Shown here: positions 7,077 to 60,286 of the stretch, in pieces
How positions within the stretch are numbered: the first letter of the stretch is position 1
Layout: each line of letters begins with the position of its first letter
From: Haliotis cracherodii
Taxonomy: Eukaryota
Direction: 5' to 3'
NCBI RefSeq assembly: GCF_022045235.1
Contig: NW_027266286.1
Span: 75,516,001-75,580,000, forward strand
Length of the DNA: 64,000 nucleotides
Program-made: the position numbers and the translations under genes
The notes under the pieces: generated by a model
Seen by the model: only the letters and a program-made list of their open reading frames with translations
Databases searched by the model: none
Told to the model about the DNA's origin: nothing

Positions 7077-7270
7077 ATCGATTTCAATACAACTGTTTCT
7101 TCTCTTATTTCTTAAGAATAACTGCATCACCTGTACATTGAAGTAAAAACACTATGTTTCATATTGATTGACGTTATCGATCCCTTTACAACGTCTGTTG
7201 GATTAGCTCGAGAAATCCACACACTGACAGAGTGCAGGTCCGACTGTTCAGTGCCTTACTGTATCGCGCC

Positions 7271-10200
7271 ATGCTGGGAAGAGTGCATCTGAACCTAACA
7301 TGTCTGGGCCTTCTCGTCCTCGTGTCTTTGTTGGTCGTTGCACTCTTGAACGACAGTATCATCCATAACATATCGTTTTCCACGCTTTCGGGACAGAGGT
7401 CCAGTCCTGGCCATGCTGTATCAAAGCCTATGCTGCCTGACTTGTACGATCAGCAGAAACGAAAAGCACTTGACATCATGAACACGGTGAGATATAGTAG
7501 TTACACAGACATTTTCACTACCCACAATATCATACTGTCAAGTCAAAGTGAAAGAATATATATTTTGAGTTAGCAAGGACGGTGTCCTGGCGGACTACTT
7601 TAACAACTGATGGATGCATGTACAGATGTACCCTTAGGTTACGCTGGAAGTACGTAATGACAGTATATACACTAGGCGGACTACTTTAACAAGATTCGGG
7701 GAAAACATGGCATCCATGCGGGCCTCGCTTACGAAGTGTCACGATTGCTTCCCAAGTGCCAAGTTTCCCAACTCCCCAATGGTCTCGGTGCCTTAAGTTT
7801 AATACCTCCCAATCTGTTGACTGACATTGAGAGAGTACCCGGGTACTCTCCGAAAAGCTGTTCGACCAGTCAGCGCTTCCTGGGAGAAGTACCATTCGCT
7901 GTCTGGGCTGCGTGTAGAGGGGGCAAGGCCCCTGAGCTGATAATGAGCCTAACCAGCCTGTCTGTGCCAGGATCATCCGAACCTTCTTTTCTGCATTTAT
8001 GCTTTTACTTATAATTATGATGATGGTATATGATGATGATGACTCCTTGCTTTCTGGCATTGAATGTTTCATTGCAGTCGATGTTTACATTCAACCAAGC
8101 ATTCAAAAATCCATGCTGGTGGGAAACATCACTTGATGACAGCAACTGTGTTGATCTGATGGAAGACGCACGGAAACCACTGCAACAAGCGCACAGAGAC
8201 CTCAGGGCCGACAAGAGGATCCTGCGATGCCTACCGTATTTCCAGATAGTGGGTCAGGCCAAATGTGGAACAACTGATCTCTTCAGTAAACTTCTCATGC
8301 ACCCACACGCTGTACCGACCATGCTGAAGGAGACGCAGTGGGTTAGCCGCGTGCGAACAAGTACGTTTCTGTAGCTGATCTATATCTACGAGCTGTCAAC
8401 ATTTGCTCAACGTATAACCATCAACGTATAACCATCAACGTATAACCATCAACGTATATATATATCCCTACCCCCATCTCTTACATGAGTAAATGATGAA
8501 TCGACAAACAACTTCATATGAAAGCTCTAGAGCTGAGCTGTGTTGGCTGCTGTAATTAATAAATATATTTGATTGTTTCAGACCAGTTTTGTTCTCCCGT
8601 AAACACGTACGTGAACTACTTTCAAAAGAGTGCCAATAGTATCAGACAAGGATTGCAGGATAAAGCTATAATAGGTAAACCACTTTGTCTATGATGTTTG
8701 ATCATAATTTTTCATAGTTCTGTTTTAGATATTGAGATTACTACACGAGTGTCTGTCAGATACGAGTTGTAAGATCAATGGTATCTGACAGGCACGACTG
8801 CAGTAATCTGTTTCTCGCACCTTTTTAGCATCGAATCGATCCATTTTGTCTATTCTCATGATCGCAGTAGCGCATTAATATATAACACCACTATCATAAG
8901 CGACGTCATCCTATGTACTGCTTACTACTCATTAATAATGTGACCCTACACAAAAAGGTGACCGCCATATCTGCGGATTATCAAGGCATTGATGATAATG
9001 CCAAACTATACAAAAAAAGAACGCGCTGGGTGCCGAGTTTAAACAATGTTTACTTCCGTATGAGTGAGTGAGTGAGTGAGTTGGGTTTAACGCCGCTTTT
9101 AACATTATTCCATTTATATCACGGCGTGTCAGCTTAATGCGGGAGGAAAGCCCAAAGTGATGCAGGTCTCAGACGTTAACCACTTCGGTGAAACCCACGA
9201 GCACGGGTATGGTGCTGACAAACCTAGAAACATAATCGGGGTGAACCGGGATTCGAACCCACAATCATAGGTTTCTGGCGTGTCCAGGGGACGCAACTCT
9301 GCACAGCGAATCGCGGCGCCTTAGACGACTGGGCCACCCGTGTCCCCACTTCCGTATGACATCCATACCGGTGACCGACTTTTACAAAATGTCTTCTTCA
9401 CTGACAACAGTACGCGGAGTTTCTAGAGGAGGGTTTTCGTTGATTGAGGGATCGTATACACATAAATGTGTGACGTAGGTAATCAAAAACATTCTGACAA
9501 TCTGCCTACTGTTATTTGTTACCATGTTTTCCAATGTAACAAAGAGAATTGGTCAGAAATGCAAATAACTACCGTCTTCGTTGAGCGTGATTTAGCATCA
9601 GTTATAGCGTCACACAGGACGGAAACTTTTACGGCTTCTGTTGAATTTACCACATCATTGTAATGTATATATGTGTAATTCCATAATTAGGGCAACATTA
9701 TTCTTCCCGTGAATAATCCCAAACGCATGATCGAGCCAATGTATGCAACAATTAAACGAAAGTGCCTCTAAAAATGCTACACAGTGTAAAATCTGAATTT
9801 TGCTTTGTTTATATTTCAGCAAGTACAGTTTTCGTTTCCATGCCTAATTTATTTCGCATGATTTCATCTAGATTATTTGCATTGGTGACAAAGACCATTT
9901 GTCACTTGTTTCTAAAATGTATGAGGAATTCAGGGATGCATGTATAGCAGCTGAGTTTGAAATATACCTGATGAAAAAGGAGCCTCATAACCGGCATTGT
10001 GTAAACACAATCCAATATGGCGGTACACTTCGCATTCTACACGATTCTAGGCTTATCAGCGACGTTTCAGAATTATCATTAGTGATTTGATACCCGTAAT
10101 TACTAATATGCTATTTTCCTACTCTAATTATTCGAGTAAATATCGAGTAAATTAGATTTCTAAACACACAGTAAGTAACGCCGTGAATTGTGATTTTGCG

Positions 10201-14115: not shown

Positions 14116-15009
14116 AAGACTTTAGGTTAAACACTCTCATAGAAATCACGAGAAATTAATTTACATTCGTGTGAATGAAATATTGATTCTCGTAAACAAT
14201 TGCGCTTTACAAATGCCAACTAAATGGTGGTACCGGGGATTCCAAAACACTTTAATTATCTACTGAATACTGTCATGTCAAATGTGCCTCTTCTCAACTC
14301 AAAACAATATTGCCAATAGTTTATGTTTGTATCAGATTGCAATACGTCTTTGTGGGCGTTAAATCGCAATATTTCTAGTATTTCAAGATCAGCTATGATA
14401 AAAGTGCCTGGTATGAATCATTCTTATATCTGACGCCTTTTCATTTTTTATACTATCTACATGCTTGAACACTTACCAAATATAGAAGGTATTGATTTCC
14501 TTGATGCAAATGCAATACTGAAGGAGTCCGTGGTATCGACTGAATCCACCACGTGTCCATGCATACTAGGAAAACGCCTGCATGCATTGAATCCCGTTGC
14601 AACATCATGGGAAAAGGGTGGGGCATGTTTGAGTCTACTAGATACACGGACCGAGTAAATACCGAATCCCCAACTTGTATACAGGGGATGGAGTAAACAT
14701 GATACATATATTGAATGCCTCAGGTGCTATTGCAAAATCGGAAGAGGGTGGCGATCCCATACCATGAATAAGGCACTCGGGAATCACTAAAGAACTGCTT
14801 TTAGATATAAAGTGTTTTACAATAACCGAAACAGTTTACATTAGAAACGGTGATACTACTATTGTGATATAGCAGCCTTGATGACATCTGAAAAGATATA
14901 AACATGTCAGTTATTGAAATATGGCCCAATATATCGGGAACATATCGGGATCATATCGGAATCACAACTCTTGATATTGATACTGTCGAAACAGGCCGAC
15001 AGTGATGTC

Positions 15010-15680
15010 GTTTTCAAGAGAAGTCACAACATTCAGAACGCTATAAAAGCCACAGGAAAGCCACCATCCAGCCACAAGCTGGGACCATCAGGATCAGTGT
15101 ACCACATTCCCTGCAATTGTAGACAGCCTTATATTAGCGAAACATCAAGGCCCCTCAAAACCCGAATCAAAGAACATCAAAGCTCAGTCTCCAAAGATGA
15201 CACTAAGTCAGCGTTATCAGACCATATCCGACAACCCAAGCCACATCATCCAGTGGGACAAAGTCAAAACCCTCACCACCAACCTCAAAGACTTCAAAAT
15301 CCGAAGACTACAAGAAGCCATCGACATCAAAAGACTCCAATCATCAATCATCATCAATGTAAGCTATTACATACCCCAGGCGTACCATCAACTCATCAAA
15401 GATCCCAATCAGTCATAATCCTTTTGCTTATATTACTTGCTTCACCCTTTTGGGTACATAACAGGCTTCTCCACTCCAGAGTACTACACCTTAAATCTAC
15501 TGTTCTGTATACACACTGCCTCCTACCCATATATACGAGTACTTACCAACACACTCTGTACATCACTTGCTTGATAACTATCTTAGGACCTACACCGAAA
15601 CGTCGCTCCTAATTGTAAAAAAGAAGATTTTCATCCATATGTCTTATCCTTACTCAGTACTCAAACTTCTAAATGCTTCT
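15010..15680 (+). mobile_element. Penelope-like element 3' fragment: frameshifted GIY-YIG endonuclease plus pLTR
   Basis: GSVYHIPCNCRQPYISETSRPLKTRIKEH...KSALSDH / IIQWDKVKTL...RRLQEAIDI. Followed by the pLTR with TTGATAA...CCGAAACGTCG. Confidence 0.82.
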
Positions 15681-17499: not shown

Positions 17500-18925
17500 T
17501 GAGATGTGAGTTTGATATATCTTTATTTGGGCTTATGTAGGTGTCAGGTACAGATGTGAGTTTGATATATCTTTGTTTGGGCATGTGTAGGTGTCAGGTA
17601 CAGATGTGAGTTTGTTATATCTTAGTTTGGGAATATGTGGGTGTCAGATACAGATATGAGTTTGTCATATCTTTGGGCATATGTAGGTGTCAGGTACAGA
17701 TGTGAGTTTGATATATCCTTGTTTGGACATATGTTGGTGTCAGGTACAGATGTGAGTTTGATATATCTTTCCTTGGGCAAATGTAGGTGTCAGGTACAGA
17801 TGTGAGTTTCATATATCTTAGTTTGTGAATTTGTGGGTGTCAGGTACAGATGTGTGTTTGATATATCTTTGCTTGGGCAAATGTAGGTGTCAGGTACAGA
17901 TGTGAGTTTCATATATCTTAGTTTGGGAACATGTGGGTGTCAGGTACAGATGTGAGTTTGATATATCTTTGCTTGGACATGTGTAAGTGTCAGGTACAGA
18001 TGTGAGTTTCATATATCTTTGTTTGGGCAAATGTAGGTGTCAGGTACAGATGTGAGTTTCATATATCTTTGTTTGGGCATATGTAGGTGTAAGGTACAGA
18101 TGCGAGTTTGATATATCCTTGTTTGGGCAAATGTAGGTGTCAGGTACAGATGTGAGTTTGATATATCCTTGTTTGGGCATATGTAGGTGTAAGGTACAGA
18201 TGCGAGTTTGATATATCCTTGTTTGGGCATATGTAGGTGTCAGGTACAGATGTGAGTTTGATATATCTTTGTTTGGGTAACTGTAGGTGTCAGGTACAGA
18301 TGTGAGTTTGATATATCCTTGTTTGGGCAAATGTAGGTGTCAGGTACAGATGTGAGTTTGATATATCCTTGTTTGGGCAAATGTAGGTGTAAGGTACAGA
18401 TGTGAGTTTGATATATCCTTGTTTGGGCAACTGTAGGTGTCAGGTACAGATGTGAGTTTGATATATCCTTGTTTGGGCATATGTAGGTTTCAGGTGGAGA
18501 TGTGAGTTTTATATATCTTTGTATGGGTATGTGTAGGTGTCAGGTACAGATGTGAGTTTGATATATCCTTGTTTGGGCAAATGTAGGTGTCAGGTACAGA
18601 TGTCAGTTTGATATATCCTTGTTTGGGCATATGTAGGTGTCAGGTACAGATGTGAGTTTGATACAACTCTGTGCATATGTAGGTGTCAGGTACAGATGTG
18701 AGTTTGATATATCCTTGTTTGGGCGTATGTAGGTGTCAGGTACATATGTGAGTTTGATATAACTCTGTGCATATGTAGGTGTCAGGTACAGATGTGAGTT
18801 TGATATATCCTTGTTTGGGCATATGTAGGTTTCAGGTGGAGATGTGAGTTTTATATATCTTTGTATGGGTATGTGTAGGTTTCAGGTACTGATGTGAGTT
18901 TGATATATGTTTGTATGAAAATGTA
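17500..18925. repeat. 50-bp tandem repeat
   Basis: gtaggtgtcaggtacagatgtgagtttgatatatccttgtttgggcatat x ~28. Confidence 0.95.
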
Positions 18926-18959: not shown

Positions 18960-20290
18960 TTAGAAATTTTAGAACTGACGCATTTCAGACCGATTTAGAT
19001 AATTGTTGCAACAAAAGGTATTTTTGTGAATGAGTTTATTGATGAAATCAAATTGTTGCTGTTTGCGGATGACATTGTCTTAGTAGCAGAACTCTGTAAT
19101 TGAGCATCTTTTTGTGATACCTGGGGCCTGGGAGTCAACCTGGATAAATAAAATATAATTGTATTCAAAATTGGTGGTGTTATTACACCACTTGAAAAAA
19201 TGGTTCTATAAAAATACAGAACTGAAAATAGTGACATATAATAAATACTTGGGCATTGTCTTTTCATCACGTCTTCTGTTGTCTTAGGTCTGTGACACCC
19301 TAGCTACACAGGCCAAGAAAACATGTTTTCCTATTTTTAAGTTGACTAAGCTCTATCCGTACATGCCATTTAAGGTAATTGTTTCTATATTCGATAGTAA
19401 AATAGCTTCGATTGCTTGTTATGGAAGTGAAATTTGAGGATTTATATTTGGAGAAAGTATAGAAAAAGTCCAAAGTGTTTTAAAGATATTTACAAACAAG
19501 TAATGAAGCATCATCTAATGCGGTTCTTGGTGAAGTTGGCCGTTATCATCTGAGTGTTATTTATTTCAGCCGATGTATAAGATATTGGTGTAGATTGATA
19601 CGCATGAATTCAAATCGACTTCCACATGCTTGTTATAAAATGCTGAAAGTACAAGATGATAATGGCGGTGTAAATTGGGCTTCTCATGCGGGAATGCTTT
19701 TGTTTAAATCTGGTTTTGGTTATGCGTGGATATCAAAGGACTGTGGACATATACATTGTTTTATGGAATTATTCAAGAGAAGAAGTATTGTCATGGTTGT
19801 ACAAAGCTGGACTCTAAACATTAACAGTTCTGTGTTCGTGAACCATTATGCGTCATATAAATCACTATTTGAAACTAAACTCTGTATAACCTCATGCTTT
19901 GATAAGGATCTTGTAAGAGTTTAAGCGAAATTTCGATGTTAAGCACATGGTTTAAAAGAACAAAAACAGCGCTTTAGCAAGCAGTTTATGCAACCGGAAT
20001 TTGTATTCTGTGAAAAGTGTGATTTATAATAATTAGAAAATGAATATCATTTTGCACTAGTTTGTACATATTACGAGAAAAGCAGAGAAAGTTTAATTCC
20101 CCGTTATCTTCATCACTGTCCATAAAAACAGAAATTTGCCTACCTGATGTCCCCCAAAAATGTTAATGTTATAAGGGGGTTTGCTCTTTATCTAAAGATA
20201 AATTTGCCAGTTTATCATTCAACAGAAGTGTTAATCTGTATTAAAGATAGTACGCATGTTATATGAAAAATATTTGTACTCTTGGCCACG
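18960..20290 (+). mobile_element. Decayed LINE RT fragment, RTE-X-like
   Basis: LLLFADDIVLVAE, FCDTWGLGVNLDK, ACYGSEI*GF, LGEVGRYHL, CIRYWCRLIRMNSNRLPHACYKML, ENEYHFALVC; many stops and frameshifts. Interrupts the 50-bp satellite. Confidence 0.75.
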
Positions 20291-20649: not shown

Positions 20650-22400
20650 ATATATCTTTGTTTGGGCATGTGTAGGTGTCAGGTACTAATGTGAGTTTGA
20701 TATATCTTTGTCCGGGTACATATAGGTGTCAGGTGCAGATGGATATGTCATTGTCTGAGTGTCTGTAGGTTTCAGGTGCAGATGGATATGTCATTGTGTG
20801 AGTGTCTGTAGGTGCCAGGTGCAGATGGATATATCATTGTGTGAGTGTCTGTAGATTTCAGGTGCACATGGATATATCATTGTCTGAGTGTCTGTAGGTG
20901 TCAGGTGCAGATGGATATGTCATTGTCTGAGTGTCTGTAGGTGTCAGGTGCAGATGGATATATCATTGTCTGAGTGTCTGTAGGTGTCAGGTGCAGATGG
21001 ATATATCATTGTCTGAATGTTTGTAGGTGTCATGTACTCTTAGATACACTAATTAAGACGGGCCGACCTTGTGTTCATGGTCTGGTGAACACAGGTCAAT
21101 GGCCGCTCATTAACTCACTGTTTTGATTTATCTCACTATCCACTATCTCACTATCCATTTGATATATTTTCCTACTTCAACTGAAACCCGGTCCCCTGTT
21201 ACATGCATGACTCACGCGTGCTCAACGGGTTGCACACGCGCTGCACACCCGTTGCACGCGCGTGTTCAACGGGTGCTCAACCCGTGTGCAACTCGTTGAG
21301 CACTCGTGTCATATGCGTGTTACACGCGTTCTCAACGCGTGTTAGGGGAATGAACCTTTAGGCAGTAGTGTATGTCATTGTCTGAGTGTCTGTAGGCGTC
21401 AGGTACAGATGGATATGTCATTATCTGAGTGTCTGTAGGCGTCAGGTACAGATGGTTATGTCACTGTCTGAGTGTCTGTAGGTGTCAGGTACAGATGGTT
21501 ATGTCACTGTCTGAGTGTCTGTAGGTTTCAGGTACAGATGGATATGTCATTGTCTGAGTGTCTGTAGGTGTCAGGTACAGATGGTTATGTCACTGTCTGA
21601 GTGTCTGTAGGTGTCAGGTACAGATGGTTATGTCACTGTCTGATTGTCTGTAGGTTTCAGGTACATATGGTTATGTCACTGTCTGAGTGTCTGTAGGTGT
21701 CAGGTACAGATGGTTATGTCACTGTCTGAGTGTCTGTAGGTTTCAGGTACAGATGGATATGTCATTGTCTGAGTGTCTGTAGGTGTCAGGTACATATGGT
21801 TATGTCACTGTCTGAGTGTATGTAGGTTTCAGGTACAGATGGATATGTCACTGTCTGAGTGTCTGTAGGTGTCAGGTACATATGGTTATGTCACTGTCTG
21901 AGTGTCTGTAGGTTTCAGGTACAGATGGATATGTCATTGTCTGAGTGTCTGTAGGTGTCAGGTACAGATGGTTATGTCACTGTCTGAGTGTCTGTAGGCG
22001 TCAGGTACAGATGGATATGTCATTGTCTGAGTGTCTGTAGGTGTCAGGTACAGATGGTTATGTCATTGTCTGAGTGTCTGTAGGTGTCAGGTACAGATGG
22101 TTATGTCATTGTCTGAGTGTCTGTAGGTGTCAGGTACAGATGAATATGTCACTGTCTGAGTGTCTGTAGGTGTCAGGTACAGATGGTTATGTCATTGTCT
22201 GAGTGTCTGTAGGCGTCAGGTACAGATGGATATGTCATTGTCTGAGTGTCTGTAGGTGTCAGGTACAGATGGTTATGTCACTGTCTGAGTGTCTGTAGGT
22301 GTCAGGTGCAGATGGTTATGTCACTGTCTGAGTGTCTGTAGGTGTCAGGTACAGATGGTTATGTCACTGTCTGAGTGTCTGTAGGTGTCAGGTGCAAATG
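20650..22400. repeat. 43-bp tandem repeat (interrupted at ~21035-21370)
   Basis: tgtctgagtgtctgtaggtgtcaggtacagatgg(a/t)tatgtca(t/c); shares a 20-bp core with the 50-bp array. Confidence 0.95.
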
Positions 22401-23038
22401 GACAGACGAAGTCTTCGTTTGTTGACAAATTCACTTTTATTTGGTTGTGAATATTACACTAATTAGACACCACATAGGACATACATCTGATCTTGTATCA
22501 AGACTTTAATCATCCCTTACTTGTGTGTTAATATGTTTTTCGTATTTATGAAAATATACCAATTATTGATAAATTTGTGTTCCAATGAATAACTGCTAGT
22601 GTACTAACACAAATACAAATAATTACTCTGGATGAGGTCATTCCAGTTACTTAGCTGCGAACCGAAAATGTTAGTGTACCTGACGCCATCTTGTTTTCTC
22701 GTTGACGGGTCCATGTTCATCACGTGACAGGTCAAAACCGATCATGTTACGAGTCAATATTCGAGGCCAGCGTCAGTCACACGATTTGGGGGTCTTCATT
22801 GAAATGTAATGTTTCGTCCCGTGGTACGGATTAACCAATGGACTTTCAAGATTCTCAATCTCTAACAATGTGAAATGATAGAAACGGTTTATATACATGA
22901 GAAAGTCTTGAGAACAACTTTATCACTGCAGACCGTCTGACATCACTACCTACCAACTATCGCTACACCAAGAGTCCGCCATACAGACAAGGTGCTGAGA
23001 CTGCTGAACCATCCTTGCTGGATGTCGGGATGAGATGG

Positions 23039-26000
23039 TCAGCCCGCAAACGCGTACTTCGTGTAAGTGATAATTGGGTGTTCGCAGACTTTGCAAGCAC
23101 CGCAACATTTGCGATTTCCCGGGCACTGATAGTCGAAGGTACATTCCGGAGGTTGGCCACACAACACACGGCCCCTGTGATAGTGATACACAGCGGCTGG
23201 GCAGAAGCCTCGTCTCACTGAAAGAGATGGAATATAATTGCAGACACTGAGTACTGACAGTGACGTGAACAGTTTACATATTAGTAGGTCGTGTCATTGC
23301 TACAACAGAAATGGAGCGTATTGCTGACCGGTTAAGTCTATTATGCCTTGTTGAATACGTGTACTAGTCCGGAGTGATGCCGATGTATAGTGCTAACTCA
23401 CTGCGATACCATTCTCAGACACAGTATACTGACTCCGAGCCGACCAGTCCTTGTTTTAGCCCCTTAATGCCGAGCGCCAGACAGGGTAACAACAAGTGCC
23501 ATCTTTTAACGTCTTTTGGTATGACGCGCCCGGGGAACAAACCCCGGGCCTTCCGCTCTCCGGTCAAGTTTACCAACGGTTGATTAAAATTCAACATGCC
23601 ATCCAACGACTACAGAACGTTATATCGAGTGAATCCTTTGAATTCACAAATTGAATGACATAGTTTGCTCCAATAGAGGAGTTGTCTGCCAAAGTGGCTG
23701 CTGTGGTGGTTATAAACAACATTCAAGCTGCCAGCTGTAACATGCACGTGGCTATTTTATAATACGTTAATTTGATGTTAGGCGATTCCGAGAAACGATC
23801 ATCGCTGGCATAACGGAGAAAACAGGTAGTATTTTACTGGAAACAACAGACACATATCTTTGTATATTTTGCGGAGAATATTATACTTCTGTAATCAGTT
23901 GAAATACCTTTGAGGACACACTCGGCCTGGGGGGTGCAGTACTGGGGTGTCGGGCATCTAATGCTACGACACAGTTGGCCGCGTGGGCATCGCACATCCT
24001 GCAAGGAAAATGTTCAGTGGAGATACTGGGAACTCAACGACTGCCACGAGGTTGAAAACATATTCCAAGATGACATCCATGACAAAAGCGACACGTAAAA
24101 CCACTTACATCAGGTATTGTTAATGTCAAATCTTCAAATTTAAAATAGCCTATGACACAATAAAACATACACACAATGTCATCAGATGCATCCAGGCCAT
24201 CTGTCGAATTGAATAGATGTTGCCTTCGCTTATACATATATGTTGATACATGGCGAAATGAAATTGTGTCAAAATCCTACTTGTTTCTTTCGTAAATACT
24301 GATATGACATGTAAATGACAACACGGCGTCTTCCGGGGGGCATATAAATATAAATACTATAATGCCTATCGTTACACAAGTTACCGAGCCGACGAAACTC
24401 CAAATGAATTAATATATCAACGTGTTACATTTACGAAATGAGGCACTTTGGTACACCAACTGAAAACTAGAGGAAAAAATAAGTCAATGTTTTCATATCT
24501 TATAAGATTGAATTTGTATTTATGTAACACATACCGCACAGGGATCCGGCTGTGCTGGCCTTTGTCCTGTACCTTGTGTTGGAGCAGGAGGCAGTGGATG
24601 TGCTAATCTTTGTCCTATTCCTGGAGCTGGGTCTACTGGTAGTCCACTTCCTTGTCCTATTCCTGGTGCTGGGTCTACTGATAGTGCACTTCCTTGTCCT
24701 ATTCCTGGTGCTGGGTCTACTGATAGTGCATTTCCTTGTCCAATTCCTGGTGCTGGGTCTACTGATAGTGCACTTACTTGTCCTATTCCTAGTGCTGGAT
24801 CTACTGATAGTGCACTTCCTTGTCCTATTCCTAGTGCTGGATCTACTGGTAGTGCATTTCCTTGTCCTATTCCTGCTGCTGGATCTACTGACAGAACACT
24901 TCCTTGTCCTAATGCTAGTGCTGGGTCTACTGGTAGTGCATTTCCTTGTCCTATTCCTGCTGCTGGATCTACTGACAGAACACTTCCTTGTCCTATTCCT
25001 AGTGCTGGGTCTACTGGTAGTGCATTTCCTTGTCCTATTCCTGGTGTTTGATCTAGTGGTAGCGGATGTGCTTGTCCTATTCCGGGTGTTTGATCTAGTG
25101 GTAGTGGATGTGCTTGTCCTATTCCTGATGTTTGATCTAGTGGTATCGGATGTGCTTGTCCGTGAACTGTGCCTAGTGCTGCATCTTGTGGCAGTGGCTG
25201 TATCTGAGTGTGTGCTGCTGACGGTACTGCAGCCGCTGCTGGTTGTGACGCCGATGCTGGTGCTGCTGCAACTGCGACTGGATGTACGTGTGCCGCTGTG
25301 TGTGCAACAAACAGCGGCTGTCCGTATGTAACCATGTGGTCAGCTGGGTGGGTCATCCACCAGTGGTGGGGAACCATCTTAACAAGCATCCCATAACTTG
25401 TCGCCCACACAGAGGCAAGTATCTGCAAGTCAGGAGAATGACAATGTTATCTAATGAGTTTTTTCCAGAATATTTATCATAGCACTATTTCTATTAATAG
25501 ATTAACTTAATTTACATAAGCATGCAATGCTAATAATTTAACTTTAAAAACTAATTTTTATTACAGAACTTCGATTGTCGACCTGAGTGTATATCACAAT
25601 ACTGCTTGCCACCCTCACGAAACAATCACACCCTTCCATGTCACTGTCAACAGGTGTTTGGGTGTAGGATATGAAACTCTTATCTTAACTTTTGATTTGT
25701 CGGTGACAAGAAAATCTACCAAAATGCTGTCGATCGGTATTTCTTTACATGATCCAATAATTGTATAACACCATCATTTCTTTAAAGTGTAAAGGACAAG
25801 ATTTACATGCCATTCTAGAATTTAGAAAATTCCCCCATATTCTGTGAATATAAGTGCCATTGTCCATTACAGTATAGAATTTATCACATTGTCTATTACA
25901 TTATAGTTTTTAAGAAAAAAACGACAGGGGAACATTGTACAACGAGTGAATCAAGGGGTTTATATACATTGTGTACGGCATCAAGGAAAACCAGTTTTCT

Positions 26001-27201
26001 ATTTGTGGATTGATGATGAAATAACATGGGTAGTTTCCTGTCCTGCCTCCCTTCAAGTGTTACATGAGAAGTGTTCATGTTCATCCTTTATCTTAAATGT
26101 AAACAAGCTTCAGGTCAAACTCACATAGAGGTACAGCCACTGTACGGAATATAACGATGACTCGATACACCCAGGAATGGAGTTGAGTTTTCATGGTACT
26201 AATGTTGTATTCAAGTATTATTCTGGCTATAAATAGGGGAACACCGGACATGGAAATACAACGTTGTACATATCCGAACGCTTGAGTGAGTGAGTGAGTG
26301 AGTTGGGTTTAACGCCGCTTTTAACATTATTCCAGTTTTATCACGGCGTGTAAGCTTAATGTGGGAGGAAAGCCCAAAGTGATGCAGGTCTCAGACGTTT
26401 ACCACTTCGGTGAAACCCACGAGCACGGGTATGGTGCTGACAAACCTAGAAACATCCCGAACGCTTGAACCACTAGACCACCCAACCGATCCTTCTTACA
26501 TATAGACATATCATAAAACAACTGATGTCTGTGTTTGACAATAGCCACAACTTCTGCTACAGCTAATCAACTCCAACGAAAAAGGTGGAATTGAAGTATC
26601 AAATTGCAGGTCACACCGCCCGACGTCGCCCAAAGATAACCGGTAAATATAAAACAATAACGTTACACTACGAAAGGTAACGTGATGTTATTTGCACATC
26701 TTCCATGCTAAAGGTGCACCTAAACAATCTTTTCAAATGATTTATAAAGTTGACTTAAGAATTTACTGACTCTAAATTATGCTTAAACATTAAAACCAGC
26801 TGTTGGTTATGATCAGCCTCACCTCTATCGACGTTTAGTTTTGTTTTCAACAACCAAAGTGAAACGTATTCTACATGCTACCGTTGAAAAGACAATGCTG
26901 CTACTGGCAATAAACTGCTGAACAGACAATATTGCTGCTTACAAACTACAATAGGAAAGACATTGTTGCCACTTACAAACATCTGTAGGAAAGACATTGT
27001 TGCCACTTACAAACATCTGTAGGAAAGACATTGTTGCCACTTACAAACATCTGTAGGAAAGACATTCTTCCTACTTACAAATAACTGTAGGAAAGACATT
27101 GTTCCTACTTACAAACATCTGTAGGAAAGACATTGTTGCCACTTACAAACATCTGTAGGAAAAACATTGTTCCTACTTACAAATAACTGTTGGAAAGACA
27201 T
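23039..27201 (-). CDS. Secreted repeat-containing WAP-domain protein (signal peptide, His-rich segment, 13 x 14-aa GQG..L.VDPA.GI repeats, FOLN-like Cys module, C-terminal WAP), 392 aa; probable shell-matrix/mantle protein
   Basis: Exons 27201-27181 (MSFQQLF|gtaagt), 25422-24535 (ILASVWATSYG...PDPCA|gtatgt), 23998-23908 (DVRCPRGQLCRSIRCPTPQYCTPQAECVLK), 23217-23039 (VRRGFCPAAVYHYHRGRVLCGQPPECTFDYQCPGNRKCCGACKVCEHP...FAG*). Phases 0,0,1 join in frame. 8-Cys WAP pattern. TATAAAAG lies 63 nt upstream of the ATG; AATAAA at 22441-22436. Confidence 0.88.
23360..23575 (-). mobile_element. SINE family C copy (intron 3 of the repeat-WAP gene)
   Basis: Shares the core ccttaatgccgagcgccagacagggtaacaacaagt with the 44.9 kb and 56.6 kb copies. 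Confidence 0.72.
26286..26456 (-). mobile_element. SINE family A, 5'-truncated copy
   Basis: Nearly identical to the 3' half of the 9064 copy. TSD ccgaacgcttga at 26274-26285 and 26457-26468. Appears nested in an older SINE remnant in intron 1 of the repeat-WAP gene. Confidence 0.85.
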
Positions 27202-27207
27202 TGTTGC
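26935..27207. repeat. 34-bp tandem repeat overlapping coding exon 1 and its donor site
   Basis: aggaaagacattgttgccacttacaaacatctgt x ~7-8. Confidence 0.9.
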
Positions 27208-27256
27208 TCCTCCGTATAACTGTGTAACCTTGCTCCGATCTCTTGGTTGACGTGGT

Positions 27257-27264
27257 CTTTTATA
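27257..27264 (-). promoter_or_regulatory. TATA box of the repeat-WAP gene
   Basis: TATAAAAG on the minus strand, 63 nt upstream of ATG 27201. Confidence 0.7.
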
Positions 27265-36135: not shown

Positions 36136-38835
36136 CCTGCATCCCCTGGATCTCCCTGCATCCCCTGAATCCCCGGCATTCCCCCTGCATCCCCCCACAT
36201 CCCCTACATCCCCTGGACCCCCCTGCATCCCCCTACCCCCCCCCCCCCCCCCCGGATCTCCCTGGATCCCCCTGCATCCTCTGGATCTCCCTGCATCCCC
36301 TGGATCCCCCTACAACCCCTGGATCCCCCTGCATCCCCTTCATCCCCCTGCATCCCCCTTGATCTCCCTTGATCCCCCTGGATCCCCCTGCATCCTCCTT
36401 TATCTCCCTGGATCCCCTGCATCCCCTGGATTTCCCTGCATCCCCTGGATCCCCCTGCATCCTCCTGGATCTCGCTGGATCTCCCTGGATCCCTCTGCAT
36501 CCCTTACACCCCCCTGGATCCAACTGCATCCCCCTGCAACCTCCTGAATCCCCATTGATCCCCCTACATCCCCTGGATCCCCCTGCATCCCCCTGGTACC
36601 AACTACATCCCCCTAGATCCCTCTGCAGTCCCCTGCAGCCCCCTGCACCCCCCTGCATCCCTGGAAACCCTTGCACCCCCTGCATCCCCTGCATCCCCTG
36701 CACCCACTGGATCCCATTTTGCACCTCCTGCATTCCCTGCAACCCCTGCATCCCCTTGCACCCCCTGCAACCCCTGCAACCCCCTGCATCCCCCTGCATC
36801 CCTGGAAACCCTTGCACCCCCTGCATCCCCTGCATCCCCTGCACCCACTGGATCCCATTTTGCACCTCCTGCATTCCCTGCAACCCCTGCATCCCCTTGC
36901 ACCCCCTGCAACCCCTGCAACCCCTGCATCCCCCTGCATCGCCCTGCACCCCCTGCATCCCCTGCATCCCCTGCATCCCCTGCACCCTCCTGCATCCCCT
37001 ACACCCCCCTGCATCCTCCTGCATCCCCTACACCCCCTGCATCCCCTGCACGCCTACACCCCCCTGCATCCCCTACACCCCTACATCCTCTACATCCTCC
37101 TGCATCACCTACATCCCCTACATTCTCCTGCATCCCCCTGCTTCCCCTACATCCCCCTGCATCCTCCTGCACCCCCTACAGCCCCCTACACTCCCCTGCA
37201 TCCCCTGGAACCCCTACATCCCCTAGATCCCCCATATCCTCTTGCATCCCCTACACCCATACATCCCCCTGCATCCCCTGCACCCCCTACACCCCCCTGC
37301 ATCCTCCTGCATCCCCTACACCCCCTGCATCCCCTGCATCCCCTACACCCCCCTGCATCCTCCTGCATCCCCTGCATCCCCTGCATTCTCCTGCATTCTC
37401 CTGCATCCCCTACACCCCCTGCATCCCCTGCACGCCTACACCCCCCTGCATCCCCTACACCCTCCTGCATCCCCTGCACCCCTACACCCCCCTGCATCCT
37501 CCTGCATCCCCTGCATCCCCTGCATTCTCCTGCATCCCCTACACCCCCTGCATCCCCTGCACATCTACACCCCCCTGCATCCCCTACACCCTCCTGCATC
37601 CCCTGCACCCCTACACCCCCCTGCATCCCCTGCACCCCTATATCCCCTACATCATCCTGCATCACCTACATCCCCTACATCCTCCTGCATCCCCTACACC
37701 CCCCTGCATCCCCTGCACCCCTACATCCTCTACATCCTCCTGCATCACCTACATCCCCTACATCCTCCTGCATCCCCTACATCCCCTACATCCTCGTGCA
37801 TCCCCTACACCCCTTGCATCTTCCTGCATCCCCTACACCCCCTGCATCCCCTGCATCCCCTACACCCCCTGCATCCCCTGCACCCCTACATCCTCATGCA
37901 TCCCCTACACCCCCCTGCATCCCCTGCACCCCCTGCATCCCCTGGAACCCCTACATCCCCTAGATCCCCCTATATCCTCTTGCATCCCCTACACCCATAC
38001 ATCCCCTGCATCTTCCTGCATCCCCTACACCCCCCTGCATCCCCTGCATCCCCTACACCCCATGCATTCTCCTGCATCCCTACACCTCCCTGCATCCCCT
38101 GCATCCCCTACACCCCCCTGCATCCTCCTGCATCACCTGCATCCCTTGCATCCCCTGTATCCCCTGCACCCCCCTGCTTCCTCCTGCATCCCCTACACCC
38201 CCTGCATCCTGCTGCATCCCCTACACCCCCCTGCATCCCCTGCACCCCTACATCCTCTACATCCTCCTGCATCACCTACATCCTCCTGCATCCTCCTGCT
38301 TCCCCTACATCCCCCTGCATCCTCCTGCATCCCCTGCACCCCTACCTCCCCCTGCATCCCCCTGCATCCCCTACATCCCCCTGCATCCCCCTGCATCCTC
38401 CTGCATCCCTACATCCCCCTGCATCCCCCTGTATCCCCTGCATCCCCTACACCCCCATGCATCCTCCTGCATCACCTGCATCCCTTGCATCCCCTGCATC
38501 CCCTGCACCCCCTGCTTCCTCCTGCATCCCCTACACCCCCTGCATCCTGCTGCATCCCCTACACCCCCTGCATCCCCTACACCCCTACATCCTCTACATC
38601 CTCCTGCATCACCTACATCCTCCTGCATCCTCCTGCTTCCCCTACATCCCCCTGCATCCTCCTGCATCCCCTGCACCCCTACATCCCCCTGCATCCCCTA
38701 CATCCCCCTGCATCCCCCTGCATCCTCCTGCATCCCTACATCCCCCTGCATCCCCCTGTATCCCCTGCATCCCCTGCATCCTCCTGCACCCTCCTGCAAC
38801 CCCTGCATCCCCCTGGATCCCCCTGCAACCCCTGG
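36136..38835. repeat. C-rich 9-10-bp minisatellite, ~2.7 kb
   Basis: ccctgcatc / ccctacacc / cctggatcc units; strongly G-rich minus strand. Confidence 0.95.
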
Positions 38836-44764: not shown

Positions 44765-45055
44765 TAGGTGAGGTGAAATTGGGTTTAACGTCGCGTCCAA
44801 GATTATTGTACTTATATAGCCACGTGCATGCACGTGTGTGTGTGTGGCTGCTTGTACTAGTCCGGACTGATGCCGATTTATAGTGCTAGCCCACTGAGAT
44901 ACCAAGCCGACCAGTCGTTGTTTTAGCTCCTTAATGCCGAGCGCCAGACAGGGTAACAACAAGTACATCTTTTAACGTCTTTTGGTATGACGTGGCCGGG
45001 GATCGAACCCCGGACCTTCCGGGCGGACGCTTTACCACTAGACCACGGAGGCGGT
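44765..45055 (-). mobile_element. tRNA-derived SINE (family C) with a Meta-SINE-like central domain
   Basis: Head TGGTCTAGTGG...GGTTCGATCCC; central GTCATACCAAAAGACGTTAAAAGATG..CTTGTTGTTACCCTGTCTGGCGCTCGGCATTAAGG; related copies at ~23360-23575 and ~56410-56700. Confidence 0.72.
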
Positions 45056-47656: not shown

Positions 47657-50600
47657 TTAACCCTTTTTAGGGTGGAATGTGGGGTTTTGGCAGGTGGAAC
47701 ATCTTCCACAACACTTCTGTATGCCGGGACAGTCACTGTCACGGTAACAAGGGCGGCCGTGGCCGCAGCGGATGGCGAGCACCGAGGAGACATGGCAGTA
47801 ACCTGGTTTATCTGAAAGTGAAGGTGACTTAGTCAGTCTAGAGTTTTCGTGACTCGTGGACCTGCAACTGTAACCCTGGCCCTACACACATAGACAGACA
47901 GTACGGTAGGATGAGATGCAACACATATAACAGGTTCTACTGAGATGCAACATATATAACAGGGTCTCCTGAGATGCAACATATATAACAGGGTCTCCTA
48001 AGATGCACCATGTATAACAGGGTCTACTGAGATGAAACATATATAACAGGGTCTCCTTAGATGCAACACATATAACAGGGTCTATTGAGATGCAACATAT
48101 ATAACAGGGTCTCCTAAGATGCAACATATATAACGGGGTATCCTGAGATGCAACATATACAACAGGATCTACTGATATGCAACATATATAACAGGGTCTC
48201 CTAAGATGCAACATATATAACAGGGTCTCCTAAGATGCAACATATATAACGGGGTATCCTCAGATGCAACATATACAACAGGGTCTACTGAGATGCAACA
48301 TATATAACAGGGTCTCCGAAGATGCAACATATATAACAGGGTCTATTGAGATGCAACATATATAACAGGGTCTCCTAAGATGCAACATATATAACAGGGT
48401 CTACTGAGATGCAACATATATAACAGGGTCTCCTAAGATGCACCATATATAACAGGGTCTATTGAGATGCACCATATATAACAGGGTCTCCTGACATGCA
48501 ACATATATAACAGGGTCTCCTGAGATGCAACATATATAACGGGGTATCCTGAGATGCAACATATACAACAGGGTCTACTGAGATGCACCATATATAACAG
48601 GGTCTACTGAGATGCACCATATATAACAGGGTCTCCTAAGATGCAACATATATAACAGGGTCTCCTGAGATGCAACATATATAACAGGGTCTCCTAAGAT
48701 GCACCATATATAACAGGGTCTATTGAGATGCAACATATATAACAGGGTCTCCTGACATGCAACATATATAACGGGGTATCCTGAGATGCAACATATATAA
48801 CAGGTTCTACTGAGATGCAACATATATAACGGGGTATCCTGAGATGCAACATATACAACAGGGTCTACTGAGATGCACCATATACAACAGGGTCTATTGA
48901 GATGCAACATATATAACAGGGTCTCCTGAGATGCAACATATATAACAGGGTCTCCTGAGATGCAACATATACAACAGGGTCTACTGAGATGCAACATATA
49001 TAACAGGGTCTACTGAGATGCAACATATATAACAGGGTCTCCTGAGATGCAACATATATAACAGGGTCTCCTGAGATGCAACATATATAACAGGGTCTCC
49101 TGAGATGCAACATATATAACAGGATCTACTGAGATGCACCATATATAACAGGGTCTCCTGAGATGCAACATATATAACAGGGTCTCCTGAGATGCAACAT
49201 ATACAACAGGGTCTCCTGAGATGCAACATATATACCAGGGTCTCCTGAGATGCAACATATATAACATGGTCTCCTGAGATGCAACATATATAACAGGGTC
49301 TCCTGAGATGCAACATATATAACAGGGTCTACTGAGATGCAACATATATAACAGGGTCTCCTGAGATGCAACATATACAACAGGGTCTACTGAGATGCAA
49401 CATATATAACAGGGTCTCCTGAGATGCAACATATATAACAGGGTCTCCTGAGATGCAACATATATAACAGGGTCTCCTGAGATGCAACATGTATAACAGG
49501 GTCTCCTTGGATGCAACATATATAACAGGGTCTACTCAGATGCAACATATATAACAGGGTCTACTGAGATGCAACGTATATAACATGGTCCCCTGAGATG
49601 CAACATATATAACATGGTCTCCTGAGATGCAACATGTATAACAGGGTCCCCTGATCTGCAATATATATAACAGGGTCTCCTGGGATGCAACATATATAAA
49701 AGGGTCTACTGGGAAGTAGCATATATAGCAGGGTCCCCTGAGATGCAACATATATAACAGAGTCTGAGATGTAACATGCATTTTTAAGAAAGGAACAAAT
49801 TTGACTGTTTGCCTTTTGTTTGTTTGCGTATTTAGCTGCGCAACCTACCTGTGCTCGAGTGTAAAAATGTCAAATAACACGTCTTACCGATCGGAACGCA
49901 GGTTGCCGTCGGGTTTCCTAGCTTGCCATATATCACCTTACAGACATCCCCAAGATGACATTCGTAGTTCTGCAACAGGTAAAATAATAAAAAAACAGAG
50001 CAACAAATCATGTGACGTCTTCAGATATGGTAACCCTTTAATGATCTTAATGGCAATAGGAAATCTTCACAACACAACACTGGTGTCATACTCGATTATA
50101 GTTCATAATATCAAAAATCATAAACATTAACTTCTTGTGTGTTCATCTTGATTTCAGATTGGTTGTAAATACAATGTACTTACGTGGCATGGGTCGACGA
50201 TGGTTGCACAGCATACACCACAGAGAAGAGCGAGCACCTGGTAACGATGATATCGTGAGGAAACAAATCCGTGACAGTTACAATTTGATAAAAATGCACA
50301 CTTGCACTAATGTCTGTAAATGAACCTCTTTTACAAATCCTACATGCTTGTGATTATACCGGAACTGCCCTGTGCGTTGGATCACCCCCGAATTAAGCTC
50401 ACATGTTTAATTGATATACAAAAATATACATAGGTTTTGGGACATTTTTCAAACATCTTCAAACCACACCTCTGCCGAACACGTTCATTTTTTATTATCA
50501 AACATTGACATTGGAAATCATCTTTCGACAAACAGTCAACCGCAACACAAAGGGACCTACGCAATACTTCGAGTTTTCCGACGTTCGACATGACGGTGTG

Positions 50601-50784
50601 TAACTGTATTTATTTACTTTCAACAGAAACCCCTTTGACATCTTGGACAAAACTTTATACAGACAAAACACTACAGAGCTGCGTCATTTTCGAACAAATA
50701 AAACGATCGTTGCAACGGGCAATGAGTATTATGTACAGCATCGAAAACCTGATTCCTTACCAGGAATGATAAGAGTGACATCAT
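47657..50784 (-). CDS. Small secreted FOLN-like + WAP domain protein, 104 aa
   Basis: Exons 50784-50761 (MMSLLSFL|gtaagg), 50237-50184 (VLALLCGVCCATIVDPCH|gtaagt), 49969-49888 (NYECHLGDVCKVIYGKLGNPTATCVPI|gtaaga), 47811-47657 (DKPGYCHVSSVLAIRCGHGRPCYRDSDCPGIQKCCGRCSTCQNPTFHPKKG*). Phases 0,0,1. TATATAAG at 50835-50828; AATAAA at 47608-47603. Absent from the ORF track in the correct frames. Confidence 0.86.
47905..49770. repeat. 29-bp tandem repeat filling intron 3 of the FOLN-WAP gene
   Basis: gagatgcaacatatataacagggtct(c/a)ct x ~63. Confidence 0.95.
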
Positions 50785-56409: not shown

Positions 56410-56700
56410 CAGAGAGGTGAAAAGGAGTTTAACGTCACGTTCAAGATTATCGCACTTACATAGCAATTTGCATGCACGTTTACTACTCCGGACTAATGAC
56501 GATTTATAGGCTAGCCCACTGACACACGCAGTTTAACATTGATACCACACTCAGACACAGTGTACTGACACCGAGCAGACCAGTCCTTGTTGTAGCCCAT
56601 TAATGCCGAGCGCCAGACAGGGTAACAACAGGTACCACCTTTTTAACGACTTTTGGTATGGTCGAACCCCCAACCTTACACTCTCCGGGCGGACGGTACA
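56410..56700 (-). mobile_element. SINE family C copy downstream of perlwapin
   Basis: Shares the core taatgccgagcgccagacagggtaacaaca. Confidence 0.7.
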
Positions 56701-56900
56701 AAAACTCGAACAAGGAGACGGTCCATAGTCTCTCAAGAAATAGTGCATTCAGAGGGGCCATACGAGCCTGCACGCCATGCCAAAATTCCACACAACTTAT
56801 ATTATTTCTCATAAGAATAATTTACTAAATTGCTAAGATTGTTTGTCAAGTCAACGTTTCAACAGTAGATATTTATTGACCAACATTTACATCATTACAT

Positions 56901-59544
56901 TTAGTCATAGCATGGTTTTTCACACTGTCTGGGGCAGCCTCCGCAGCACTTCTGGTCCCCGGGGCAGTCAAAGTCACCAACACAGTACGCAACGCAGACC
57001 CCCGCATCATACTTTCTCCTTGGACAAGTTCCGGGCTTTTCTGGCCTGTAGCACCCCTTACATCCTGGCTTGCCGCAGCACTTCTGGTTTCCGGGGCAAT
57101 CCTGGTCGTTGTAACACGCATTTCCTTTACAAGGGCCTCGTTTTATCACTGGGCAAATCCCTAGACAATATAAATATGAACTTATTAGCATATTTCAGTT
57201 TTCAACATGTCAAGAGTATTTGTTATACAGTACATCTGCGAGGGTATATAAAAGAAACAACGTGTTTTGTAATGTATAGTTTGTAAAGTGTGTAACGGTT
57301 CTTGGTCCAAGGTTGTGTCCCTTTGTCGTGGACGGATCCTGATCAACCTAAACATGATCCTTTCTTTTCGAACACTTCACAGGTTATGGTGTAATTATTT
57401 CATTCTGTGTAATTGAGTGAGAAAATGCTCACAAGCAGATATGTGTCGGCTCAATCAGGTCAAATCCTCTTCAATGAGCTCTTACTCGAACGCAAGGCGA
57501 AATATCAGGGACTAATGTTACCTCAGGATGCCAAACAGAAAACAACACATTCCCTCAAACTTTCATATTAGCAGCTTGACCTGTCTTTGAATGCGTTTGT
57601 GACCTGTGCCACCGTTTAATTTACCTGGCTTGGGTTTGGGGACACAGGTGATGTAGCACCCAGCTCTACAGCAGTAGTATCCAGGACGGCAGTAACGGTC
57701 GCTGTAGCATCCCCGCTCGCACACATCAGGGAAGTCCAACCCAGGAGGACAGCCTGGAACAATTGGTACCGGTATATTGTTATTATGCACTGTTACAGAC
57801 CTGTATGTTCAGCTGCAAGTGACACACACATATATCAAGATGAACAATTAACTGTTACCCCATCATCGGCACTATGATGCTAATTAAATTCGTATGTTGA
57901 GATAAAGCATTTTGGGTTTGTTTTAGTTTTGTAAAATATTAACAGTAAGCCTTAAGTGTTTTATGAAATTAATAAAACTGTGTGCATGGACGTGCAATTA
58001 GAAGCATTTCTTTATATTAGAAGATGTGAAGTAAACCAGGATAGCAAACTATATCAACAACAAAACATAACCATAATATATGGCATTTTCATTTCATAAT
58101 AAAAGTACTTGGTGAATGACCCTTTTTGAAGTGACACGGTAGAATTAATTTATGTTTCACCTTTCACCTTCCCCAAGCATGCCAATCATATATCATAACA
58201 TTGTTACACATTGAGGAACGAATGTTGTTTTGTGTTAGTCAGAAATAGATGCTATCGGACTGTAAGTAATCATGTTTTGACTGGGCGGACACGTGTCGCT
58301 GGTACATTTATCATTGGACCAATCAGGAACAAACATTATTGCCACCAAGGGTGATAATTTATTATATACATATGAATGAAATACTGGAATATATCAGTGA
58401 CGATAGATCAAGTTATCAGTCACTAGTGACTGATATAAACAAGGTGCCGGAACTACTTTCTCCTGAATCAAAACATTACGTTTACGTCAGATGCCGACTG
58501 TCTCAACCGCAGGTGCATAACTTCTCTTCAACTGACCACAGGCACTTTTTGACGAGTCTGATGTCTGGAAATAACATCTATGGCAATGTTAATATCACTC
58601 TTGCGCCGGACATGCTTCGCCAGACATTAGGCACAACTGGCGACAGCGAGACGTACTGCCGAGGCGAGAAGCGCCCGCTTGAATTTTCCGAGAATTGAAC
58701 TTTCCTAATTTAATTCATGACAGCAAGCAACAATGTTACAGTTAAAATGTTCGGGGTTCACGAACGAGTGAAAATATTAGACTCTCCCCACTTCACTCGA
58801 TTTCAATGTGTATCAATATTGTTGTAAAATAAACATTCATGGATAAACATAGTGTTAGTGTGCTCATTGCAGATGCGCATGAACGCGAACGTTTAGTGAA
58901 CTAGGAGCTGGCCGCAACCTAATGGCGCTTAATGTGAGCGGCATATCCTGATAGTGAGAGTCAGTACATGTGCACTAAGGAATACCAAGCTACCTGACAG
59001 TAGGTAACATATATGTAACAGTGGTCAACACTGGGCAGAAGAAGAGACAATGCCAAAATATAAATAACAGTAATTAAGCAGAGACATAGTTACACAGCTC
59101 GTTTAGGATGGCAGACAGTCAATGTACAATGAAATGGCGATTAATAATGGGGATGAACATTTTAAAGAAATTTCGATAAAGTGATTCTTGGCAAAGAGAG
59201 CTACAGAGTAGTTAACCTTTTGTTCATTCAGACATTCAAATCGGTCGCTATGACAGTATCAGTATCAATATCTGGGGTGATTTGCTTTACCTGGGAGCTG
59301 TGGCCCATAACCAGTGGCAGTTCCCACAAGAACCGCTGTACAAACAACCTGTAGACGTCAAACAAGTGATATATGCCATGCAAATACAACAGCTTGAATT
59401 TTACAACAAGATTTATGTTCAGCCAAATTGCGACAAAACTGTTGATTCTAAAACTGTTAGCAACACACCCAACAAGAGAAATGACCATGTTTACATTGGT
59501 GAGTTTACGACAGCTGTACGTACCAAACACAGGAGGAGATGCAT
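56901..59544 (-). CDS. Perlwapin (or a close paralogue): secreted nacre-matrix protein with three WAP domains, 155-aa precursor
   Basis: Exons 59544-59524 (MHLLLCL|gtacgt), 59348-59291 (VVCTAVLVGTATG-YGPQLP|gtaaag), 57753-57625 (GCPPGLDFPDVCERGCYSDRYCRPGYYCCRAGCYITCVPKPKP), 57160-56901 (GICPVIKRGPCKGNACYNDQDCPGNQKCCGKPGCKGCYRPEKPGTCPRRKYDAGVCVAYCVGDFDCPGDQKCCGGCPRQCEKPCYD*). Phases 0,1,1. The predicted mature N-terminus YGPQLPGCPPG and WAP2/WAP3 closely match Haliotis perlwapin as I recall it. AATAAA at 56877-56872. Confidence 0.92.
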
Positions 59545-60263: not shown

Positions 60264-60286
60264 GGTGACATGACGGGAGCTGTTTG

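Follow-up and report, generated by a model that had tools for sequence, protein, structure and literature searches.

A WAP-domain gene of Haliotis cracherodii with a 14-residue repeat expanded inside one exon, and its unexpanded paralogue

The 64,000-nt stretch of Haliotis cracherodii DNA analysed here (RefSeq assembly GCF_022045235.1, contig NW_027266286.1, positions 75,516,001 to 75,580,000 of the forward strand; hereafter the window, with positions counted from its first letter) contains 34 tandem-repeat rows according to Tandem Repeats Finder (TRF), and one of these arrays lies inside an 888-nt open frame on the minus strand (24535..25422). The question raised by this locus is whether the frame is an exon of a true gene and, if so, how the repeat came to be there and what it would do for the protein. 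A small gene type, made of a signal peptide, a Cys module and a WAP domain, is present in the window in two copies, and its second exon is expanded in one of them. An earlier interpretation of the letters, i.e., the sequence-only reading, had proposed a low-complexity repeat expanded inside one exon of a secreted protein, which is now supported by the paralogue comparison, the splicing and the register of the repeat units.

The gene carrying the expansion, referred to below as the repeat gene, has four exons on the minus strand. The coding part of exon 1 (27181..27201) provides 7 codons with the start of the signal peptide and ends at a GTAAGT donor in phase 0, the same slot and phase as exon 1 of the paralogue. 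Exon 2 (24535..25422; 888 nt, 296 aa, phase 0-0) is open in frame 0 and is bounded by an AG acceptor with a pyrimidine-rich tract and by a GT donor. Exon 3 (23908..23998; 91 nt, phase 0-1) encodes five Cys, and the coding part of exon 4 (23039..23217) encodes the WAP four-disulfide core with 8 Cys and the stop. The 3′ untranslated region (UTR; 22436..23038) ends near an AATAAA at 22441, and a putative TATA box (27258..27264), judged from its letters, lies 63 nt 5′ of the first ATG. Joined together, the four exons yield 392 aa comprising a signal peptide, a His/Met/Trp tip, 13 units of 14 aa, a six-Cys module and the WAP domain, confirming the 888-nt exon in frame 0 and the 392-aa model that had been put forward.

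The splicing was examined using contigs from 4 of 19 listed public runs over 22410-24609, a region that takes in exons 3 and 4 plus the final 75 nt of exon 2. The RNA nature of these runs is a guess, and the two that proved informative, X1 (organism A) and X2 (organism B), both come from organisms other than that of the window. The X1 and X2 contigs skip 23218-23907 and approximately 23999-24534 with CT..AC ends, showing both introns as modelled in two of the four runs. The joints 23217/23908 and 23998/24535 are GT-AG in both, with the donor at 24535 used in each, and the removal of two GT-AG introns suggests that these contigs are cDNA. The spliced contigs reach 24609 and continue from there into the array, and the X2 contig extends to 22446 in the 3′ UTR; one record each in X1 and X2 overruns an end of the compared stretch. 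The earlier model had been made to depend on transcription of the 888-nt exon, and the exon 2 donor is indeed joined to exon 3 in the contigs of both organisms. As for the other two runs, contigs of X13, a run of unknown kind, continue through the introns, and X9 contributed one 206-nt piece with no splice joint within 22410-24609. Three public runs labelled as the species of the window contained next to none of the sequence words, which is no proof of absence.

Upstream of the compared stretch, the acceptor at 25422 is the sole open phase-0 candidate among 20 pyrimidine-rich acceptors between the array and exon 1, and none of the 6 other candidates within exon 2 would keep the phase of exon 1. 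The acceptor at 25422 also supplies the rest of a hydrophobic signal peptide, and on these grounds the start of exon 2 was placed there. The open frame of the array itself was dropped as coding evidence, because three of the six array frames contain no stop, and the same is true of at least one frame in 2 of the 13 other arrays counted. The coding claim is thus based on the splicing in the contigs and on the paralogue.

Exon 2 opens with the remainder of the signal peptide (residues 8-18; 25390..25422), which has a hydropathy peak of 2.9 in a 7-residue window and is followed by a predicted cleavage site. The tip (residues 19-62; 25258..25389) contains 7 His, all within residues 26-54, together with 2 Trp and 4 Met. 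An Ala/Pro/Gln tract (residues 63-94; 25162..25257) that includes a degenerate repeat unit leads into the array of 13 units of 42 bp or 14 aa (residues 95-276; 24616..25161), identified by TRF and by translation, and a Pro-rich basic link (24535..24615), present in the spliced contigs of X1 and X2, carries degenerate units in register into the DPC motif. TRF reports a period of 42, 12.8 copies, 87% matches and 0% indels. The count of 13 tandem units with one Asp each, given by the sequence-only reading, was found again at 25161-24616 (13/13 units), and its unit consensus holds overall, except for the end of unit 6, where AL replaces GI, and the start of unit 10, which reads GQV. The 84-bp alternation described in units 4-8 is also real, with units 5 and 7 identical, units 4, 6 and 8 apart by 1-3 nt, and the two types apart by 7-10 nt. 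Outside the 13, three degenerate units were located at 24609, 25209 and 25293 (position weight matrix scores 9.8, 8.6 and 6.3), the last forming the end of the tip; in 1000 shuffles, which kept the base composition and not the codon composition, the best score had a mean of − 21.6, a 95th percentile of − 12.1 and a maximum of 11.2.

The array is composed of 19.2% Gly, 14.3% Pro, 12.6% Ala, 11% Leu and 7.1% Asp, with GQ and DP carried by the units and at least one Pro in every unit. It contains 13 Asp, 16 Gln and 6 PG dipeptides, no Lys, Arg or Tyr, and has a net charge of − 13, a GRAVY (grand average of hydropathy) of + 0.2 and an isoelectric point (pI) of 4.05, compared with 8.3 for the Cys module and 8.9 for the WAP exon, so that charge is divided along the protein. 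Pfam scans of the array and the tip alone gave nothing above the cut-off.

The paralogue, referred to as paralogue B (47657..50784, minus strand), encodes 104 aa with a signal peptide, a four-Cys module and a WAP domain in exons at 50784-50761, 50237-50184, 49969-49888 and 47811-47657, and it lies approximately 25 kb from the repeat gene. Intron phases 0, 0 and 1 are common to both genes. Exon 2 of paralogue B has 54 nt without the insert, compared with 888 nt in the repeat gene, and the shared slot that the sequence-only reading had assigned to the two exons is borne out by phase 0-0 and a DPCx end in both. Alignment of the mature part of paralogue B with the last 96 residues of the repeat protein gave a score of 122, compared with 22.7 ± 7.7 and a maximum of 61 for shuffles (n = 1000). 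Over their first 14 codons, exon 2 of the repeat gene and exon 2 of paralogue B align without a gap, with a weak identity of 19 of 42 nt.

The link aligns to the repeat unit in register up to the DP codons that precede the first Cys, and paralogue B has VDP at the position of these DP codons. Together with the degenerate units at 24609, 25209 and 25293, this points to slippage, and the simplest history, which is well supported, would be that the insert grew internally as the stretch preceding the first Cys slipped repeatedly. The unexpanded state is probably ancestral, a polarity drawn from an unrooted comparison to which the alternative is loss of the insert in paralogue B. Among the distinct changes between units, 17 are non-synonymous on 30 sites and 7 are synonymous on 12, with no stop among the 24. 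The variation between units thus appears to be near neutral, and this well-supported estimate suggests that the exact sequence of the spacer is little constrained. Coding differences shown by the contigs were counted among 40 of 141 difference rows, the part that was listed: all 3 in exon 3 are synonymous, all 4 in the link are non-synonymous and accompanied by an in-frame 24-nt insertion in X2, and no Cys is lost.

At the C-terminal end, the WAP domain matches Pfam PF00095 with 28.9 bits (cut-off 20.8) and has 8 Cys with spacing 13,5,5,5,0,2,2. The six-Cys module preceding it consists of one Cys from exon 2 and five from exon 3 (spacing 4,5,4,5,5), giving 14 Cys in total. A FOLN-WAP cap had been suggested for this region, and its WAP half stands on the Pfam match. 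Its FOLN half is unconfirmed: exon 3 of either gene alone has no match to FOLN (follistatin N-terminal-like, PF09289) at E ≤ 1, the first Cys of the module being encoded in exon 2, and the leading spacing 4,5 fits the FOLN pattern. The lustrin Cys-repeat family likewise has no Pfam match in the parts of the gene that were scanned. Gly-Gln comes after the second WAP Cys, Cys353, and no Met occurs in the WAP exon. Elafin-type inhibitory WAP domains have a Met at the reactive site following the second Cys. Because Met is missing there, the head is unlikely to be an elafin-type protease inhibitor; a passage in PMC2831891 describes the Met after the second WAP Cys as catalytically important.

These features may be combined into one functional reading, for and against which we see the case as evenly balanced, namely a secreted, tethered, two-ended WAP protein of an abalone-type WAP cluster, with an anchored His tip, a mostly disordered spacer and a surface-binding head. 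The insert probably forms a Gly/Pro/Ala-rich, weakly acidic and mostly disordered spacer of approximately 220 residues. More tentatively, this spacer would keep the basic Cys and WAP head clear of the matrix, and the His/Met/Trp tip might anchor the protein in a secreted extracellular layer, such as the mantle edge, periostracum, mucus or shell matrix, possibly via His-metal coordination or oxidative cross-linking, and the one Gln per unit could be a transglutaminase site. The head would bind a surface, which could be that of microbes or, as for perlwapin, of a carbonate crystal, instead of working as a canonical elastase inhibitor. The possible disorder named earlier is compatible with the AlphaFold prediction made without an alignment, in which exon 2 has a mean predicted local distance difference test (pLDDT) of 47 and no confident fold.

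Several results weigh against this tethered-protein reading. None of the motifs CGQPP, CCGAC and HPLPL of the repeat gene, nor CCGRC and CGHGR of paralogue B, occurs in any of the 27 supplements (27/27) of the H. laevigata shell proteome PMC6003135, although perlwapin peptides are plentiful in the same files; this absence could be explained by species divergence or by a gap in the database of that study. The constraint on the head is weakly shown, since only 1 of the 4 listed coding differences in exon 4 is synonymous and 3 are non-synonymous. The tip, the array and the joint of exons 1 and 2 lie outside the stretch compared with reads and are predicted from the DNA. The near-neutral variation between units would be equally well compatible with a functionless expansion. 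Finally, when units 4-13 were folded alone, one of five AlphaFold models was a beta-roll with two strands per unit (pLDDT 63, predicted template modelling score (pTM) 0.50) rather than a disordered chain.

The strongest alternative, which we consider unlikely yet credible, is neutral expansion: the array would be a coding minisatellite, the Cys and WAP head would act as in paralogue B, and the spacer and tip would add nothing. The abundance of tandem repeats in the window, including an array in which exon 1 has also been caught, fits this explanation, as do the near-neutral units, among whose 24 distinct changes the absence of stops is unremarkable, the degenerate unit at the end of the tip (25293) and the further slippage in X2. 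However, three organisms preserve the frame of at least the 3′ end of the insert, the length of the one indel observed in coding sequence is divisible by 3, the tip with its His, Trp and Met is unlike the remainder, and the degenerate outer units suggest an old array whose frame has been preserved.

The sequence-only reading itself had raised a possibly disordered or elastomeric Ca/metal-binding matrix protein, and the corresponding alternative, an elastomeric, Ca-binding structural component of nacre or prisms in which the periodic Asp binds calcium, is rather improbable. In its favour are the perlwapin-like neighbour described below and a hydrophobic Gly/Pro/Ala repeat with 6 PG dipeptides and a net charge of − 13, and a passage in PMC2989941 lists lustrin A and perlwapin as WAP-bearing nacre proteins. 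Moreover, residues 23-278 are without Lys or Arg, so that most of the protein would be hidden from tryptic proteomics. However, Ca binding by the periodic Asp is weakly supported, with Asp at just 7.1% of the array, whereas acidic shell proteins of H. laevigata have 25-36%, and a location in the shell matrix is likewise weak given that the motifs searched, including tryptic WAP motifs, are missing from the supplements in which perlwapin peptides are frequent. Elasticity fares no better, with Pro at 14.3%, Gly at 19.2% and no Lys or Tyr in the array. Its 2P+G value of 0.48 would lie under an elastomer threshold of approximately 0.6. A passage in PMC5424786 treats this threshold without giving a numeric value.

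A further alternative, distinctly improbable, takes the one folded model at its word: the array would fold, alone or on a mineral face, as a two-sided beta-roll in which each unit makes one 14-residue coil, and the resulting ladder of Asp would recognise a crystal face in the manner of ice-binding beta-rolls. The two-stranded units of that model, the Asp in all 13 units and the 14-aa register without an indel are consistent with it, and the top match of the model in VIA is the ryegrass ice-binding protein 3ULT, with a Z of 13.3 over 111 aligned residues. However, the root-mean-square deviation to 3ULT is 7.7 Å, YadA-type heads are tied in VIA (Z 12-12.8), and the tool itself cautions that repeats often reach a Z near 13. 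Foldseek found no match at E ≤ 0.001 for either model, the other four models of units 4-13 have pLDDT of 35-41, prolines occur in every unit and in some cases inside a modelled strand, and the variation between units is near neutral. The beta-roll was therefore retained as a lead only, since it comes from single-sequence folding without a control fold. An extended version, on the same slim footing, would have slippage give rise to a beta-roll de novo, with the 13-Asp ladder templating or poisoning a carbonate face, a His-metal anchor and the WAP head at the two ends, and the output tuned by the minisatellite of exon 1. If the beta-roll were true, the unexpanded paralogue B would represent the state before the birth of the fold.

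The minisatellite of exon 1 (26924..27208, minus strand) consists of 8.4 copies of a 34-bp unit made of the end of the 5′ UTR, the ATG, 18 coding nt and the splice donor. Seven copies of ATG..GTAAGT are intact and the eighth carries a stop; codon 4 is Gln in the first copy and Leu in the others. If a downstream exon 1 donor were used, the first ATG would lose the frame or open a short upstream open reading frame (ORF), and the ATG nearest the donor would stay in frame; for the fourth donor, the first ATG would open a 30-codon upstream ORF with its stop 9 nt before an in-frame ATG. Variation in copy number could affect expression. A second candidate donor lies inside the array, where a G-to-T change created a consensus-like GTAAGT in phase 0 in unit 10 (24772..24777, 1 of 13 units); its predicted use removes 81 residues including the first Cys and leaves an odd number of Cys. 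That the modelled exon 2 is not the main product in the species of the window, through the unit 10 donor at 24777, one of the six further GTAAGT donors in the exon 1 array or another acceptor, is the least probable alternative of all, for although the reads compared cover the 3′ end of exon 2 and carry other labels than that species, the donor at 24535 is the one joined in the spliced contigs of both X1 and X2, these contigs continue beyond 24609 into the array, and no other acceptor candidate inside exon 2 fits the phase of exon 1.

The two paralogues belong to a set of three WAP genes in the window, all on the minus strand. The third is a perlwapin-like gene (56900..57753) with two exons and three WAP domains found by Pfam, whose 5′ signal-peptide exon was not located; the translation of 57753-56900 closely matches peptides of H. 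laevigata perlwapin (PWAP_HALLA) in the PMC6003135 supplements. Of its three WAP domains, the first departs most from the H. laevigata peptides. In paralogue B, a 29-bp array occupies most of the third intron (47912-49765). Intron 3 of the repeat gene contains a very high-copy short interspersed element (23360-23563) with huge contig depth in all four runs and further copies at approximately 44853-45021 and 56476-56660, and a second repeat is present in the 3′ UTR near 22680-22855. Downstream of the gene, arrays of 50 bp and 43 bp at 17502-18914, 20723-21032 and 21371-22401 share approximately two thirds identity and seemingly derive from one source unit. A 2.7-kb GC-rich array of 9/19/28 bp at 36136-38834 has open frames of up to 799 aa and is probably non-coding. 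On the plus strand, open frames at 7172-8374 resemble exons of a membrane-anchored carbohydrate sulfotransferase, a candidate label: they include what is presumably a motif like the binding loop for 3′-phosphoadenosine 5′-phosphosulfate (PAPS), and the two frames scanned have no Pfam match at E ≤ 0.1. A fragment at 59768-60331 (minus strand), upstream of the perlwapin-like exons, resembles an ORF of a non-LTR (long terminal repeat) retrotransposon, with a weak zf-RVT match (E 0.009) below the cut-off, and the frames at 14902-15612 and 19484-19924, which have no Pfam match, look to us like retroelement remnants.

A protein search with exon 2 returned no match among 8000 scored candidates of 162-518 aa, and one with exon 4 none among longer proteins. 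The perlwapin-like exon, run as a control, also gave no match despite sharing several 5-mers with published perlwapin peptides, and thus these blanks are no evidence of novelty; it is quite possible that a Haliotis annotation contains an entry as an uncharacterised protein. When exon 4 was compared by phmmer with 1.84 billion representatives, four matches were obtained: two were multi-WAP proteins of amphibians, and the other two, repeat proteins without a name, look spurious. In the ESM Atlas, exon 2 had no usable match and exon 4 fell near generic chordate WAP clusters at 0.76-0.85. Five peptide motifs were absent from the full-text literature searched (without subscription papers, figure images and bioRxiv supplements), the terms sought had no matches in the 7 supplements of PMC4944945, and topic searches found nothing describing it by title or start of abstract. 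The repeat protein is real and apparently undescribed in the literature searched, exemplifying a known evolutionary route rather than representing a new kind of system, and nothing would be overturned unless the beta-roll proves true. Its value lies elsewhere, as repetitive domains of molluscs are thought to be born by slippage and grafted onto old domains, with a starting point that is rarely visible. Because both paralogues are found in one cluster with the same phases and a traceable array, paralogue B and the repeat gene form a ready natural control for what the repeat contributes.

Among known proteins, perlwapin (PWAP_HALLA, P84811) is one of the closest: both are secreted, a perlwapin-like gene lies in the same cluster, and the WAP core is identical to the third WAP of perlwapin at 13 of 24 positions. 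However, perlwapin has three successive WAP domains compared with one in the repeat protein, and it is without the six-Cys module and the 280-residue low-complexity N-terminal part. Lustrin A is likewise long and modular with a WAP-like domain, according to a passage in PMC2989941. The molluscan secreted proteins with repetitive low-complexity domains (RLCDs) resemble the repeat protein in a unit of approximately 10 aa, a Gly/Ala bias, the joining to an ancient domain and an origin by slippage; passages of PMC4897951 report such repeats in approximately 30% of the shell matrix proteins of Lottia, Haliotis and Pinctada and treat slippage as possible. In contrast to these, the present unit and combination were not found in the searches made, and an unexpanded paralogue is nearby. 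Aspein, asprich and the Asp-rich RLCD proteins form a separate group, with Asp at 25-75% compared with 7.1% in the array; passages of PMC6003135 put the acidic shell proteins of H. laevigata at 25-36%, with aspein and asprich at up to 75%.

The trappins (pre-elafin) share a signal peptide, a Gln-bearing repeat of variable copy number encoded in exon 2, and a C-terminal WAP domain, and their repeat anchors the WAP domain in the matrix (passages of PMC2831891). However, the trappin repeat is the 6-aa KGQDPV, compared with a 14-aa unit without Lys here, and no Pfam family for the trappin transglutaminase-substrate domain was found at E ≤ 0.1 or E ≤ 1. Trappin genes have three exons with the repeat and the WAP domain both in exon 2, whereas the repeat gene has four with the WAP domain in exon 4; trappins are also eutherian and the Met after the second WAP Cys is missing here, so that the likeness is an analogy only. 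Type II crustins have the same order of signal peptide, Gly-rich region, Cys-rich region and WAP domain, and Gly reaches 19.2% in the present array. Their Cys region has four Cys, with 12 Cys in all, compared with six and 14 here, and the present repeat is Gly/Pro/Ala-based with Asp and far longer. Crustins have been reported from crustaceans and a few insects, whereas the present cluster is of mollusc type by its perlwapin-like neighbour. The proposal that type II crustins arose from type I via insertion of a Gly-rich region, found in a passage of PMC7401287, mirrors the relation of paralogue B to the repeat gene. The repeat protein can thus be placed in the WAP domain family and in the loose molluscan RLCD class and is neither a trappin, a type II crustin nor a perlwapin. 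It adds a further independent case of a repeat joined to a WAP domain, parallel to trappins and type II crustins, and by analogy it may be trappin-like in working, as a repeat anchor with a WAP domain, and type II crustin-like in build.

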